Of a DNA stretch of 64,000 bases, positions 5,457 to 11,621 are shown piece after piece (the stretch's first letter is position 1; the number at the start of each line of letters is the position of its first letter). The stretch covers positions 12,127 to 76,126 of the forward strand of contig JBIPSI010000027.1 in NCBI GenBank assembly GCA_044070495.1, written 5' to 3'. Below the pieces are notes generated by a model. The model did no database searches, was not told where the DNA came from, and saw only the letters and a list, made by a program, of their open reading frames with translations. Source of the stretch: Spirulina sp. (GTDB taxonomy: Bacteria > Cyanobacteriota > Cyanobacteriia > Phormidesmidales > Phormidesmidaceae). A program made the translations under genes and the position numbers.

Positions 5457-6773
5457 TTACCCCCCCACCGCGCCGTAGACAATCCCCGACAGCGTGGCCA
5501 TCACCACCACCAGGGCCACGAAGACCACGGTTTTCTTCGTGCCCATAATGCTGCGGATCACCAGCATGTTTGGCAACGATAGGGCGGGGCCAGCTAACAA
5601 CAGCGCCAGGGCGGGGCCTTGGCCCATACCGTTGCCAATCAACCCTTGCAGAATTGGCACTTCGGTGAGGGTGGCGAAGTACATGAAGGCCCCGGCGAGG
5701 GCGGCGAAGAAGTTGGAAAACAGAGAATTGCCCCCCACCGCCCAGGTAATCCACTGGGAGGGGATCAGCGCCTCTTGGCCGGGGCGACCGAGCAATGCCC
5801 CCGCCACCAGCACGCCAAAGAACAGCAGCGGCAGAATTTGCTTGGCGTAGTCCCAGGAGGACTGGAACCACTCGCCTGCTTCGTCCTTATCCGTACTGGT
5901 GAGCCAGGAGAGGCCGATCACCGCTGCCCCAAAGGCCACCATGGGCTGGGCCACAAACTGGAAGGCCAGCACCGTGGTCACCCCCGCCACCAGGGCTACT
6001 TTGCCGGGGTTCAGGTTCAGCCAGCGAATTAGCATCACCGCCAAGGCTACCCCCAAGGCTCCGGTGATCCACCACTTGGCAGCGTAGATCGCCGCCCAGG
6101 GGCCAACGGTTGACGCTGGGGCCGCCCAGTTGGCAAACACTAGAATGCCCACCATCACCCCAAAGAACAGGGCATTTTGCCACAGGGGGCGAGCGACTTC
6201 CGGCTCCGACAACCCGGCCTGGGCTTCGATTTTTTCCAGTTCTTCCTGCCGGAAAATGAAGGCCATCAGCAGGCCAATCACCACGCTAAAAACAATTGCC
6301 CCCACCGCCCGCGCAAGGCCCAGCTTTAGCCCCAGCACCCGCGCCGTCAGGATAATCGCCAGCACGTTGATGGCGGGGCCAGAGTAGAGAAACGCCGTGG
6401 CAGGGCCGAGGCCAGCCCCCATGCGGTAAATGCCCGCAAACAGGGGCAGCACCGTGCAGGAACACACCGCCAAAATCGTGCCCGACACCGAGGCCACACT
6501 GTAGGCCAAAACCTTGTTGGCGTGGGCCCCCAGGTATTTCATCACCGCATCCTGGGAGATGAACACCGCAATGGCCCCGGCAATGAAGAAGGCCGGAATC
6601 AAACACAGCAGCACATGCTCCTGGGCATACCAGCGCACCAAGTGAAGCGACTCAAACACCGCATTACGCAAGCGTTCTGAGTTCTGAATCGCCTCCACGG
6701 GCAGGTAAAAACAGGCCAGGAACCCCGCCAAAATCCACAGCAGCGGCTTCCATTCCGATTTCCAAAAATGCAT
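5457..6773 (-). CDS. DUF318/ArsP-like permease
   Basis: multi-TM protein with AVCSCTVLP, FLYSGPAIN, MYFATLTEVP, AGPALSLP motifs. Confidence 0.85.
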   Translation of the reverse strand: MHFWKSEWKPLLWILAGFLACFYLPVEAIQNSERLRNAVFESLHLVRWYAQEHVLLCLIPAFFIAGAIAVFISQDAVMKYLGAHANKVLAYSVASVSGTILAVCSCTVLPLFAGIYRMGAGLGPATAFLYSGPAINVLAIILTARVLGLKLGLARAVGAIVFSVVIGLLMAFIFRQEELEKIEAQAGLSEPEVARPLWQNALFFGVMVGILVFANWAAPASTVGPWAAIYAAKWWITGALGVALAVMLIRWLNLNPGKVALVAGVTTVLAFQFVAQPMVAFGAAVIGLSWLTSTDKDEAGEWFQSSWDYAKQILPLLFFGVLVAGALLGRPGQEALIPSQWITWAVGGNSLFSNFFAALAGAFMYFATLTEVPILQGLIGNGMGQGPALALLLAGPALSLPNMLVIRSIMGTKKTVVFVALVVVMATLSGIVYGAVGG

Positions 6774-6837
6774 AGACAACCTTCCTCCCCAAGCTGGCTG
6801 GGGATCCTGTGGTGTAAACAATGGGTGAGTCAGGAAA

Positions 6838-6900
6838 GATCCCAGGGTTCTGTCTGGGGCTGTATTAGCTATCGCTGGTTAGATCAAGAACCCTGGGATC
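6838..6900. repeat. 63-bp hairpin element
   Basis: 14-bp perfect inverted ends GATCCCAGGGTTCT / AGAACCCTGGGATC; relative at 10797-10935. Confidence 0.75.
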
Positions 6901-6908
6901 TGATTGCC

Positions 6909-7163
6909 CTATCTGGGCAGTAGGGCGGCGATGGCGGCGGGTTCTAGGAGTTTGCCCTGGCTGAGGACTTGGCCGTTCACCACTAGGGCCGGGGTTTTCA
7001 TCACGCCGCGCTTGACGATTTCCATGGTGTCGGTAATGTGGGACACCTCGGCCTCTAGCTGCCGATTGTCAATGGCCATCTTGGCGTTGGCCTCTAGTTG
7101 GTGGCACTTCTTGCAGCCTGTGCCTAGAATTTCAACCTTTAGGGTAGTCATGGCCGTTACCAT
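6909..7163 (-). CDS. small thioredoxin-like redox-active disulfide protein (MTH895-like)
   Basis: ILGTGCKKC CxxC motif, GVMKTPALVVNG. Confidence 0.9.
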   Translation of the reverse strand: MVTAMTTLKVEILGTGCKKCHQLEANAKMAIDNRQLEAEVSHITDTMEIVKRGVMKTPALVVNGQVLSQGKLLEPAAIAALLPR

Positions 7164-7233
7164 TCCTTCAATGGAGTGAAATAGAAATAAATGGGGTGAA
7201 ATCTGGGTTCAGTGGAAAAGGATCCGTGGGCAA

Positions 7234-7668
7234 TCAGTCCCTGGACTCTAGGGATGCCGCCGCCGTCAGCGAATGGGCTTGAAACACCACACACTGCTTC
7301 CCCTCGTCAGGTTGGGCCGCGCCTCGCTGACACTGTTCCAACAGGGGACGGAGTTGGGCCTTCAGGGCTTGCAGGTTGCGGATGGTTTCGTCGATCTGCG
7401 CCATTTTCCTCAGCAGCCGATCCTGCACCTCCCGGCAAGACAGGCGTTGGCCATCCTGGAGGGCCAGCAGTTCCTTAATGTCATCCAGGCTTAGCCCTAG
7501 GGTTTTGGCCTGGGTGATGAAGGTGAGCCGATCCAGATCCGTCTGGTCGTAGAGCCGATAGCCTGCCGCCGTGCGCTGGGGGCTGGGCATGAGACCAATG
7601 CGCTCATAGAAATAGAGGGTCTGGGGGTTCAGCCCTAGGCGACGGGAGACTTCACCAACCTGAAACAT
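7234..7668 (-). CDS. MerR-family heavy-metal-responsive regulator
   Basis: MerR HTH (TLYFYERIGL, GYRLY, LGLSLDDIKELL) and three Cys in the metal-binding region. Confidence 0.9.
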   Translation of the reverse strand: MFQVGEVSRRLGLNPQTLYFYERIGLMPSPQRTAAGYRLYDQTDLDRLTFITQAKTLGLSLDDIKELLALQDGQRLSCREVQDRLLRKMAQIDETIRNLQALKAQLRPLLEQCQRGAAQPDEGKQCVVFQAHSLTAAASLESRD

Positions 7669-7710
7669 GGAGCGACCTCGCAGTGGCCTGACACGGGATT
7701 CCACCCCCAA

Positions 7711-7742
7711 AGCCTACCCCTTATACCCACGTATAAGGTCAA
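7711..7742 (-). promoter_or_regulatory. MerR-type promoter/operator
   Basis: minus strand TTGACC - 20 bp - TAGGCT with dyad CCTTATAC-N4-GTATAAGG (7719-7738). Confidence 0.8.
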
Positions 7743-8012
7743 GGGTTTAGGGTAAATATTGCAGAATCCGCCCCATCGTTTGCCCCAGTTCCGCAGGTTA
7801 CGTTAAATTAAGTAAAGATTTCGTCTCATACTTTTTACTTTAGACGGTAGTTTGGCAACTTCCTTGGCAACGATTCCTTGCTTCCCAGGCATGATGGACA
7901 TATCTGTTAACCCCGCGAATCGGGAACTTGGAGCCGGGGCTTGGTAGCTGCCTAACGCTGCTTTAGTCAACGCCGATAAATCTGTGCAAGTCGTGAATAG
8001 AGGCCATTGGTT

Positions 8013-9899
8013 ATGAAATTTTCTTGGCGAGTTGTCCTACTCTGGACCCTGCCGCTTTTGGTTGTAGGGTTCTTTCTGTGGCAAGGGGCCTTTGCTGGCG
8101 CTCCTGCCGATATGGGTCGCAACGCGGCCAGCACCCGCATGACCTATGGCCGCTTTCTAGACTATCTGGATGCTGGACGGGTGACAGCGGTGGATCTCTA
8201 CGACGGGGGCCGCACCGCTATTATCGAAGCGGTGGATCCTGAGCTAGACAATCGCCTACAGCGCTGGCGGGTGGATCTCCCCGGCAACTCCCCTGAATTG
8301 GTCAGTCGTCTGCGGGAGTCCAACATCAGCCTAGATTCCCACCCCCCCCGCAACGATGGGGCGTTGGTGGGTGCCCTGGGCAATCTGCTATTCCCCCTGC
8401 TATTGATTGGTGGATTGTTCTTTTTGTTCCGTCGCTCCGGTGGTGGTGCGGGTGGCCCTGGCCAAGCCATGAGCTTTGGTAAGTCTAAGGCCCGCTTCAT
8501 GATGGAAGCCAAGACCGGGGTGATGTTCGATGACGTGGCCGGGATTGACGAAGCCAAGGAAGAATTGCAAGAAGTCGTCACCTTCCTGAAAAAGCCTGAG
8601 CGCTTCACCGCCATCGGTGCCCGCATTCCCAAGGGCGTGCTGCTGGTTGGCCCTCCCGGAACCGGAAAAACCCTGCTGGCTAAGGCTATCGCTGGGGAAG
8701 CTGGGGTGCCCTTCTTCTCCATCTCCGGTTCTGAGTTTGTGGAAATGTTCGTCGGGGTAGGGGCCTCCCGCGTCCGCGACCTGTTCAAAAAAGCTAAGGA
8801 CAACGCCCCCTGCATCATCTTTATTGATGAAATTGATGCCGTGGGTCGTCAGCGGGGCGCAGGCATCGGCGGCGGCAACGACGAGCGGGAACAAACCCTC
8901 AACCAATTGCTGACCGAAATGGACGGCTTTGAGGGCAACACTGGGATTATTATTATCGCCGCCACCAACCGCGTCGATGTGCTAGATTCCGCCCTGCTGC
9001 GTCCCGGTCGCTTCGACCGTCAGGTGATGGTGGATCCCCCGGATATCAAAGGTCGGGTGGAAATTCTGGAAGTCCACGCCCGCAACAAAAAGCTGGCCGA
9101 GGAAATCTCCCTGGAGGCCATCGCCCGCCGCACCCCTGGCTTTACTGGGGCCGATCTGGCGAACCTGCTCAACGAAGCCGCCATCCTCACCGCCCGCCGC
9201 CGCAAAGAAGCCATGACCATGGCCGAGGTGGATGACGCCGTAGACCGGGTGATTGCCGGAATGGAAGGCACCCCCCTGGTAGATAGCAAGAGCAAGCGCC
9301 TGATTGCTTATCACGAAGTGGGCCATGCCATCGTGGGTACGCTGGTCAAAGATCACGACCCCGTGCAGAAAGTCACCCTAATTCCTCGCGGACAGGCCCA
9401 GGGTCTCACCTGGTTTACCCCCAGCGAAGATCAAATGCTGATCTCCCGCGCCCAAATCCTGGCCCGCATCACCGGAGCCTTGGGGGGGCGTGCCGCTGAG
9501 GATGTGATTTTTGGCGATGCCGAAGTGACCACCGGAGCCGGAAACGACCTCCAGCAGGTGTCTAACATGGCCCGTCAGATGGTCACCCGCTTCGGGATGT
9601 CCGACCTGGGGCCGCTGTCCTTGGAAAGCTCCCAGGGCGAAGTGTTCCTCGGTCGTGATTGGCTTTCCCGCTCGGAATACTCCGAGGAAGTGTCCTCCCG
9701 CATTGACGCCCAGGTGCGTGTCATCGTAGACCAGTGCTATGAAGACGCCAAACGCATCATGCGCGACAACCGAGCGCTGATCGACCGCCTAGTGGATCTG
9801 CTGGTGGAACGGGAAACCATCGATGGCGACGAATTCCGCCAAATCGTCTCGGAATACACCGTCGTTCCTGACAAGCAGCAGTTTGTGCCCCAACTGTAG
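8013..9899 (+). CDS. ftsH2: ATP-dependent zinc metalloprotease FtsH2
   Basis: MKFSWR start, MTYGRFL, Walker [14 protein letters not shown] zinc motif. Confidence 0.95.
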
Positions 9900-9950
9900 G
9901 GTATCTAGGCTGACTCGGTAAGGCATACCCAGTAAGGCCGATTAATCACT

Positions 9951-9983
9951 AGAAAGGCTCGTCTACCCAGGCGGGCCTTTTCT
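9951..9983 (+). terminator. rho-independent terminator after ftsH2
   Basis: AGAAAGGCTCGTCT-ACCC-AGGCGGGCCTTTTCT hairpin. Confidence 0.7.
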
Positions 9984-10057
9984 ATGAAGGCTTTTTAGCA
10001 TTGTGTCAGGCAGATAGCCTTCAGCCTCTTATCGGAAAGGATGGTTATGGGCCATCG

Positions 10058-10084
10058 GTAGGAGCGAGGAGTTCTCGTCCCTAC
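10058..10084. repeat. GTAG-type REP-like palindrome
   Basis: GTAGGAGCGAGGAGTTCTCGTCCCTAC; related to 48472, 54377, 63457. Confidence 0.6.
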
Positions 10085-10318
10085 CGACGGCTGTACGGGT
10101 TAGGAATCGTGTGTATGAAGTTCAGAATTGCCTCAAAGAGCGACTTCCATTGCAGTTCATGGGATCACGATGTGGTGGGCCGCAGCATCTCTAACAAGCC
10201 TTCATATATAAAGAAATGTTAACAGCCACTTAAGCTTTCCTATACTTTTGTTGCGCCACGTTGAGAAATCCCCGGCACCTAGACCAAGCTAAGGATAGTT
10301 ATTTTCCCTGAGAAAGCC

Positions 10319-10762
10319 ATGTTCTCCCAACTCTCCCTAGCGCCTCGGTACCGCCTGGATGATGAGTCTGCCTGGTTGCAAGGCATTGATCCCTTGCGGC
10401 GCTACTGGGTGATGGTGAATGGCGAAGAAACCCTGGTGCGTCGGCTTCCTGGCCTCAGTACCCAGAACTTTGACAACTTCAAGCAGGCCATTCGCGGCTT
10501 TCGGTCGTTGGATATTGGCCAAGAACTGACTTTGCCCGCCGAACTGGGCGAACAGTTGACCATCTTTTGCGTTGCGGAAAACACTTACGCCGTCGCCGAT
10601 CATTCCTCTGCCCCGGTATGGCACCTGTTTGATCGAGAATCCCTCGAATCGCTTCTGATGACGGCCCATCCCGACTGGCAATGTGCGTCCCAACATTTGC
10701 TTCTAGGGCAATCTGTTCTTACCGCCGCCTGGGGGCAACCTGTCGCGGCCAAAGCTGCCTAA
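10319..10762 (+). CDS. hypothetical protein
   Basis: 147-aa ATG ORF with host-like codon usage; no motif recognised. Confidence 0.7.
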   Translation: MFSQLSLAPRYRLDDESAWLQGIDPLRRYWVMVNGEETLVRRLPGLSTQNFDNFKQAIRGFRSLDIGQELTLPAELGEQLTIFCVAENTYAVADHSSAPVWHLFDRESLESLLMTAHPDWQCASQHLLLGQSVLTAAWGQPVAAKAA

Positions 10763-10796
10763 GCCTCTAAATCTTAAGATTCCAGGATTATCCCAC

Positions 10797-10935
10797 GATC
10801 CCAGGGTTCTACTGGGCCTTAGCCTAGGGCTATTGCACTGGCGTAAGCGACTATCGACCGGGAACGCAACCAACTCGCCGCGTTCTACTGGGCCTTAGCC
10901 TAGGGCTATTGCACTGGCCCAAGAACCCTGGGACT
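10797..10935. repeat. 63-bp hairpin element expanded by repeat(37)-spacer(39)-repeat(37), a CRISPR-like single unit
   Basis: identical 37-mers GTTCTACTGGGCCTTAGCCTAGGGCTATTGCACTGGC at 10806-10842 and 10882-10918. Confidence 0.85.
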
Positions 10936-10952
10936 AACTACGTATAAGCAAC

Positions 10953-11348
10953 CTATCCCCGGTTAAATTGCAGTAACTCTTGCAGAGAGGCCAGCAGTTT
11001 AATTTCGGTGCGTTGAATGTGGTCGGCGGTGGAAATGTCAAAAATCCATTGCACATTCACGGTAAAGAGGGGTGTTTTGACGCGACCCTTCACTGTCACT
11101 TGGCGACCACTATCAATGGGTTGCGTGTGGCTTTCTTTCGGGATTGCCCGCATTCCAGCCGCTTCCTGGGCTAGGTAGGTGGCAATGGCGGGTGGCCCCA
11201 CAATGGCTTCCTCGAAGGGTGGGCATAGGCAACCTTCATCGCTGAATAGCGTGGCCACAGCGGCGTAGTTGCCCTGGTTGAAATGCTGGAAATAGCGCTC
11301 CGTAACCGGGTCTAGGGTGGGGGTAGTTTGGGAAAGGGTTTGAACCAT
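10953..11348 (-). CDS. OCP C-terminal domain homolog (CTDH, NTF2-like)
   Basis: YFQHFNQG, PPFEEAIVG, VKGRVKTPLF, KLLASLQELL match the OCP CTD; adjacent to HCP. Confidence 0.85.
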   Translation of the reverse strand: MVQTLSQTTPTLDPVTERYFQHFNQGNYAAVATLFSDEGCLCPPFEEAIVGPPAIATYLAQEAAGMRAIPKESHTQPIDSGRQVTVKGRVKTPLFTVNVQWIFDISTADHIQRTEIKLLASLQELLQFNRG

Positions 11349-11381
11349 GGGGAGTAGGGGGTTGGGGGATGAACTGAGACA

Positions 11382-11513
11382 GGGTGTAGGGTGGGAAGGT
11401 GCAAGGTGGGGGGGGTGAAGGTGGGAGGGGTGAAGGGGGGAGGGGTGAAGGTGGGAGGGGTGAAGGTGGGAAGGTTGAAGGTGGGGGGGGTGAAGGTGGG
11501 AGGGGTGAAGGTG
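11382..11513. repeat. 15-bp purine-rich tandem repeat
   Basis: about 8 imperfect units of TGAAGGTGGGAGGGG. Confidence 0.85.
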
Positions 11514-11621
11514 CTCTGTATTGCCTAGATATGAAAAAGGGATGGCTACCCTGTTGGAGGCCGTGGGGCGCTCTCGGATAACCATCCCAATGTCACAATT
11601 TAGCCATCATAGGCTAGGAAA

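Follow-up and report, generated by a model that had tools for sequence, protein, structure and literature searches.

The locus described here raises the question of how a structure of the repeat-spacer-repeat type can arise inside a dispersed hairpin element. The origin of new CRISPR arrays is still open, and the leading idea is that off-target integration by Cas1-Cas2 makes the first repeat-spacer-repeat unit; its support consists of overexpression experiments in E. coli and, according to 10.1101/148544, of circumstantial evidence in two other species. The locus belongs to a 64,000-nt stretch of DNA of the filamentous cyanobacterium Spirulina sp., called the window below, which corresponds to positions 12127-76126 of contig C27 of a draft genome (G000, 5.31 Mb, 74 contigs, 56.7% G+C). 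We propose that the locus is the product of a natural off-target integration by Cas1-Cas2, a "neo-CRISPR" scar, with a probability of about 0.6. The features on which the argument is built are collected in Table 1.

Table 1. Features of the expanded hairpin element and of its surroundings (coordinates in the window).
Feature	Coordinates	Strand	Remarks
Unexpanded long member of the hairpin family, for comparison	6838..6900		length equals that of the expanded locus minus 76 nt
Upstream flanking ORF, 147 aa	10319..10762	+	anchor for retrieving orthologous loci
GCCAAA, type I-D leader motif I (Kieper et al. 2019, PMC6607411)	10748..10753	+	58 nt upstream of the edge of the duplication, within the 3' end of the upstream gene
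Intergenic block with the expanded element, 194 nt	10763..10956		absent from several relatives, in which the convergent genes nearly abut
Left hairpin arm GATCCCAGGGTTCT	10797..10810	+	cut by the left edge of the duplication (10805/10806), immediately 3' of CCAGG
Copy 1 of the 37-nt duplicated target	10806..10842	+	last 5 nt of the left arm and 32 of the 35 interior nt
Unique 39-nt insert, read as a putative ectopic spacer	10843..10881		G+C 61.5%
Copy 2 of the 37-nt duplicated target	10882..10918	+	same sequence as copy 1
Three final interior nt and right arm AGAACCCTGGGA	10919..10935	+	outer end degenerate
Downstream convergent ORF, 210 aa	10953..11585	-	

The expanded element sits between two convergent ORFs (10319-10762 on the plus strand and 10953-11585 on the minus strand). 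The initial annotation had described two identical 37-nt repeats around a unique 39-nt segment, and this is confirmed: the 37-mers (10806-10842 and 10882-10918) are identical at 37/37 positions, and the distance from start to start is 76 nt. The 12-nt arms on either side (10799-10810 and 10922-10933) show 100% complementarity. The 11-nt arm cores are 111 nt apart, which equals 35 + 76 nt, so that the removal of one copy and of the insert restores a standard member of the family; the remainder has the length of the element at 6838-6900, as had been claimed. The outer ends of the expanded locus read CGATCCC on the left and GGGACT on the right, and those of most family copies AGATCCC...GGGATCT. 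The first two bases of the target 37-mer are GT and its last base is C, which also holds for the repeat of the type III-D array on contig C20. A search of the region 6500-11500 of the window against Rfam, with E values up to 1, returned zero family matches. A G-rich dispersed repeat made of GGTGAAGG-like units, which matches many sites in the same genome and in related genomes, lies inside or next to the downstream ORF (11382-11513).

The arms define a family of repeated elements. In the window, the arm motif has six matches with at most one mismatch, compared to 0.38 expected, and at least six matches were obtained in 0/100 shuffles. The whole genome contains 71 arm pairs (arms within 500 nt of one another): 31 tight hairpins with a loop of 3-4 nt, 36 long members with 33-38 nt between the 11-nt arm cores, and four odd pairs, one of which is the expanded locus. 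The arms are 15 nt long and near-invariant, with GATC and CCAGG inside, and the 36 long members have interiors with hardly any relationship to one another (19/630 pairs exceed the 99th percentile of shuffles, where 6.3 would be expected). The same arms are present in other genomes of the genus, several of which have tandem arrays of hairpin elements with periods of 79-96 nt. No transposase tied to the family was found in the genome, where the two weak matches to Y1_Tnp are both distant from every listed hairpin. Searches of the literature for strings of the arm motif gave, among the matches listed, unrelated primers only.

Compared with REP/BIME- and MITE-like families, the hairpin elements are likewise short, dispersed, mostly intergenic, bounded by conserved inverted arms and sometimes clustered in tandem. 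They differ in the near-invariant arms around almost unrelated interiors of 33-38 nt, in the existence of a second class with a loop of 3-4 nt, and in that no transposase could be tied to them. The length of the interiors and their near lack of relationship had suggested that the long members themselves might enclose spacers. This was rejected: the orthologous copies in two relatives (L038 and L083, see below) diverge only as their flanks do, so the interiors evolve as ordinary sequence. Local duplications were observed in other members of the family. At C9:157485-157690 a stretch of 100 nt is duplicated in tandem with 2 mismatches, its left edge being the GGGTTCT also found at that of the expanded locus, and in C15:102677-102795 a 51-nt stretch composed of interior and right arm is repeated, with 4 nt between the copies.

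The same two relatives display the ancestral state of the locus. At the identical site, and with the same flanking genes, a metagenome contig (L038, neighbour protein 88% identical in amino acids) and an uncultured genome (L083, neighbour protein 96% identical) each carry one unexpanded orthologous element. Its interior is identical to that of the window at 30/35 positions in L038 and, with one gap, at 22/35 positions in L083 (counted manually on the alignment). None of the 12-mers of the 39-nt insert occurs in either sequence (0/28 each), and each has its own interior in a single copy. The single unexpanded copy in both L038 and L083 indicates that the extra 76 nt are derived in the lineage of the window, and they consist of 39 new nt plus a 37-nt target duplication. 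The initial annotation had regarded the 37-mer as a duplicated target and not as a CRISPR repeat, and we come to the same view: the 37-mer is single in L038 and L083, and it is identical to the host repeats at only 8-13 of 36-37 positions, which means that it is unrelated to them. It had also noted that relatives carrying the 39-mer without the duplication would speak against its reading; these two have the element once, with neither the 39-mer nor the duplication. As for the empty allele that it proposed to look for in close strains, the related organisms L038 and L083 do provide one, but no empty allele comes from a strain whose flanks are otherwise identical.

The closest species of the panel (G005 and G019, 87% identical) lack the entire 194-nt block 10763-10956, and contigs from the metagenome runs X3 and X10, in which the same block is missing, contain the joint 10762>10957. 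The element is also missing in L037 and L084-L086 (Phormidium sp., Nodosilinea sp. and Leptolyngbya sp.). In the element-free L037, TAGCCTCGGTT is present twice in tandem at the empty site (1640-1665); this doubling may have arisen as a duplicated target or have been left behind by an excision. The two edges of the 194-nt block in the window (10752-10765 and 10940-10952) carry similar strings of 9-11 nt (CCTAAGCC... and CCTATCCCC..., respectively), which resemble the single copy present in relatives without the block.

The host has the enzymes that a spacer acquisition would require. The genome encodes two Cas1 (312 and 288 bits) and two Cas2 (79 bits each), all four reading frames are open, and each cas1-cas2 pair adjoins a CRISPR array. 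The type I-D locus on contig C1 associates cas1-cas2 with cas3', cas10d, csc2, csc1, cas6 and cas4, and its array consists of 55 repeats of 37 nt with spacers of 34-42 nt (39 nt in 1/54). In the type III-D locus on contig C20, cas1-cas2 accompany csx10, csx19 and RAMP genes, and the array consists of 25 repeats of 37 nt with spacers of 35-43 nt (39 nt in 3/24). A III-B-like locus on contig C16 has repeats of 36 nt and no cas1. Thus, the 37-nt length of the duplication is the repeat length of three of the four repeat types of the host (I-D on C1, III-D on C20 and V-K on C5), and the 39-nt length of the insert falls within the spacer ranges of both the I-D and the III-D arrays, being most typical of the latter. 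The absence of cas1/cas2 or the use of other repeat lengths had been named beforehand as an argument against off-target acquisition; with two cas1-cas2 pairs, repeats of 37 nt and a 39-mer within both spacer ranges, the genome offers no such argument.

These CRISPR loci have other features of their own. On contig C5, a gene for Cas12k (871 bits with the type V-K model; L018:6623-8506) adjoins an array of four 37-nt repeats (C5:49046-49296, the whole region being C5:46623-49296), which suggests a CRISPR-associated transposon. Heptanucleotide tandem units are found directly upstream of both adaptation modules, AACCAAC upstream of the III-D cas1 (C20:29600-29641) and GTTATTC/GTTATTT upstream of the I-D cas4-cas1 (C1:145990-146090). 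In the I-D array (C1:148290-152275), base 5 of the spacer is C in 30/54 spacers.

The following scenario would account for the structure. Cas1-Cas2 of the host, from either the III-D module (C20) or the I-D module (C1), would have inserted one spacer-sized fragment of 39 nt at a non-CRISPR site, the target being a pre-existing member, 63-65 nt long, of the dispersed family of palindromic hairpins. The two strands would have been attacked one repeat length (37 nt) apart, as in a normal acquisition, and the repair of the gaps would have duplicated the 37 nt, giving repeat-spacer-repeat. Since neither a donor of the insert nor an empty allele of the same strain was found, the involvement of Cas1-Cas2 is argued from the anatomy of the locus and from the two lengths. 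It also has to be considered that the locus is a single event at one site, which counts against this reading. Off-target acquisition was the interpretation put forward in the initial annotation, and none of the tests that it had named as able to refute it did so.

Several cues could tell which module acted and in which orientation, and they do not agree. The 8 nt across the left edge of the duplication match the leader-repeat junction of the C20 array at 7/8 positions (P 0.0006), this being a post hoc comparison and the best of 12 combinations of window and orientation; the match depends on the window, with P of 0.02-0.07 when wider ones are used, and the opposite orientation scores equally well or better (8/15 and 10/20). 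Any resemblance of the target to leader-repeat junctions is weak. The hexanucleotide GCCAAA upstream of the duplication is a weak lead as a possible leader cue: it lies at -58, its chance being about 1.5-2% per orientation, and the I-D leader of the host itself has GCCAAA at -51 and -39. The preference for C at base 5 of the I-D spacers (30/54) fits the minus orientation of the insert, whereas plus is favoured by both GCCAAA and the junction. Hence junction, GCCAAA, spacer length and base-5 C together disagree on both the module, which could be I-D or III-D, and the orientation.

The insert is unique in all the collections that were searched. The 39-mer is absent from the rest of its own genome (in BLAST the next best matches are of 14 nt, with an E value of 0.42), blastn against phages and plasmids gives no protospacer (best E values of 0.6 and 2, respectively), and exact scans of viral, metagenome and genome contigs give 0 matches each. 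It does not occur in 400 other genomes of the class with up to three mismatches (0 matches), nor in 168 other fetched loci (0 matches). The search for a protospacer and a PAM that had been recommended thus found nothing in the genome, phages, plasmids and contig collections. As there is no protospacer, no PAM can be read and a foreign origin of the 39-mer, which the proposed integration would imply, is unproven. In type I-D systems the PAM is GTN. Most natural spacers have no known match. A local origin from the flanks, suspected by eye, was rejected, because 209/500 shuffles and 271/500 random genomic 39-mers score equally.

The genome was scanned for direct repeats that are near-exact, at least 34 nt long and spaced by 60-94 nt. 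The 191 raw hits were reduced to 50 rows by excluding the four known arrays and requiring at least 25 unrepeated nt, and the rows were sorted by eye into five groups: low-complexity or coding tandems, simple tandem duplications, pairs belonging to other palindromes, a small CRISPR array and the expanded locus. Apart from the small array at C20:12818, which had not been among the four known ones, this manual reading leaves the expanded locus as the sole isolated intergenic case in which two copies of about 37 nt enclose a unique insert of spacer size. The genome-wide scan for further duplications of this kind, which had been suggested at the outset, therefore brought up one other such signature, and it is a CRISPR array. 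In 52 other genomes of the genus the search for expanded elements was negative: the arm-to-arm matches with a gap of 98-128 nt are tandem pairs of complete elements in 19/19 cases, in which a complete right arm is found about 35 nt past the left arm.

Other explanations have to be weighed against integration by Cas1-Cas2. The main rival is that breakage, repair or replication slippage intrinsic to the hairpin family generated the structure, the match with CRISPR lengths being coincidental; we consider it unlikely. The palindrome would stall or break replication near an arm, possibly at CCAGG, 37 nt would be copied again, and the 39 nt would be filler, either untemplated or from a template since lost. 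The left edge of the duplication does lie directly after CCAGG and could be a breakage point, and the family is prone to local changes: partial duplications occur at C9:157485, with the same GGGTTCT at the left edge, and at C15:102677, solo arms at C14:123538 and C6:153784, and tandem arrays are common in the genus. Moreover, the 16 positions that flank the exact repeat match at 8/16, compared to about 4 for random positions. However, these other cases are A-B-A-B tandems or retain recognisable arms, and none has acquired new unique sequence or has CRISPR-like lengths. The middle of the expanded locus consists of 39 unique nt in which no remnant of an arm is seen and for which neither the genome nor the flanks contain a source, and new sequence is not generated by slippage. 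The two lengths coincide with the CRISPR values of the host, and copies that are identical at 37/37 positions between flanks that are not identical are a poor fit to a decayed tandem. A related idea, which we regard as very unlikely, is that the locus is what is left of two complete elements in tandem, the 39-mer having arisen by later deletion or mutation of their inner arms and linker. Such pairs with similar interiors exist in this genome (C4:32564/32660, C6:118913/119002 and C6:153635/153775) and in 11 other genomes of the genus, but the known pairs keep their inner arms while their interiors have diverged; the expanded locus has identical interiors around an armless 39-mer, and both relatives with an orthologous element have a single copy.

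Integration after staggered cuts generally leaves direct repeats around an insert, and another integrase or transposase with an unusually long target duplication could in principle have left the 39 nt as a footprint or as a miniature element. We consider this highly improbable, given that the 39-mer has neither terminal inverted repeats nor a second copy; to our knowledge, the target duplications of transposons are all far shorter than 37 nt. The occurrence of cas1 genes in CRISPR loci only also means that there is no casposon. The chance that the structure is an artefact of assembly, namely a false loop through the repeat, appears slighter than that of any of the preceding alternatives. The genome is a draft of 74 contigs, and the repeat exceeds the 31-nt words used by some assemblers. 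Against this, run X1 has a Logan contig of 184 nt which spans positions 10821-11004 of the window with 0 differences and contains 22 nt from the end of copy 1, the entire 39-mer, copy 2 and the right arm with its flank; real reads must have the repeat on both sides of the 39-mer. This contig has just 22 letters to the left of the junction between copy 1 and the insert, less than the 31 letters of the bridging rule, and X1 may be the source sample of the window, in which case it represents a second assembly and not an independent organism. As a second assembly it nevertheless carries the same structure, which speaks against the artefact that the initial annotation had named as a possible refutation. 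Run X7 covers positions 10505-10683 only, outside the element, and the largest share of sampled words in any run is 0.39.

The work of Nivala, Shipman & Church (2018) on the type I-E system of E. coli, cited in 10.1101/148544, PMC6607411, PMC6698737, PMC9456107 and PMC11788318, is reported to describe non-canonical spacer integration that leads to neo-CRISPR loci in cells overexpressing Cas1-Cas2. Judged by these accounts, the expanded locus is similar to the E. coli loci in that a spacer-sized insert is found at a non-CRISPR site with a duplication as long as a repeat, in a host with Cas1-Cas2, the "repeat" being ordinary genomic sequence. It differs from the loci thus described in several respects: it is natural and arose without overexpression of Cas1-Cas2; it occurs in a cyanobacterium, whose modules are I-D and III-D and whose repeats measure 37 nt, instead of in E. 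coli with a type I-E system and IHF; the target belongs to a palindromic family; the empty state is seen in related organisms and not in a parental strain; and no donor was found.

Kieper et al. (2019) showed that the type I-D Cas1-2 integrates spacers at a low rate even into a leaderless substrate, and they cite Nivala et al. 2018 for integration at non-CRISPR genomic sites (PMC6607411). The expanded locus resembles the I-D acquisition described in PMC6607411 by the repeat-length duplication, the size of the spacer and the presence of GCCAAA less than 60 nt upstream, but it has no CRISPR repeat, no A-T-rich leader and neither motif II nor motif III. No TTGGC occurs within 230 nt upstream of the duplication. 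Spacers of 39 nt, the length of the insert, are rare in the I-D array of the host (1/54). A study of Cas1-Cas2 from P. furiosus in vitro (PMC6698737) reports that off-target sites share features with repeats at the junction and in the middle of the repeat, and that cruciform formation is unnecessary for integration. As in the off-target integration reported there, the target here is non-CRISPR DNA; unlike the sites described there, the expanded locus has only the post hoc match of 7/8 with the III-D junction. No description of off-target integration in I-D or III-D systems was found in the literature searched.

The expanded locus is not a CRISPR array proper: it has two copies of a 37-mer which is the interior of a hairpin member and is single in relatives. 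The product of the proposed integration is most likely an inert scar; indeed, since the duplicated 37-mer is unrelated to the repeats of the host, processing by Cas6 would not be expected. It is nevertheless a clean natural candidate for the first step towards an array, because both lengths agree with the host systems, the genes for adaptation are intact and relatives still show the ancestral target. With the palindromic hairpin it moreover provides a defined target that can be used in an integration assay. For annotation, a "mini array" of two repeats need not be a CRISPR locus, as hairpin repeats can bear such scars.

Members of the hairpin family are also found inside or close to the CRISPR loci of the host, and in two unrelated arrays they take up spacer slots of normal length, whereas at the expanded locus a putative spacer lies within a hairpin. 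A complete tight hairpin of 33 nt fills the 41-nt spacer slot C20:12778-12818 of the small array C20:12740-12935, flush with a variant III-D repeat. Another complete 33-nt hairpin occupies a 48-nt slot at C16:70132-70179 (the region extends to 70181), separated by 2 nt from the terminal repeat of the C16 array. The 33-nt cores of these hairpin-bearing slots match elsewhere in the genome, while the extra 8-13 nt do not, so that no genomic source was found for the slots as wholes. It is tempting to speculate that the hairpin family and the adaptation machinery are mechanistically linked in both directions, palindromes being captured as prespacers as well as docked on as targets, a proposal that we regard as doubtful. 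If true, the hairpin family would offer natural sites at which new arrays are seeded.

A further hairpin is present 21 nt past the other end of the C16 array (C16:70754-70807), and one is located about 190 nt upstream of the III-D cas1 (C20:29425-29457). The order hairpin-GA-repeat seen on C16 is conserved in two other species, G005 and G067 (loci L164 and L166, around 1483-1515), with neighbouring spacers that differ.
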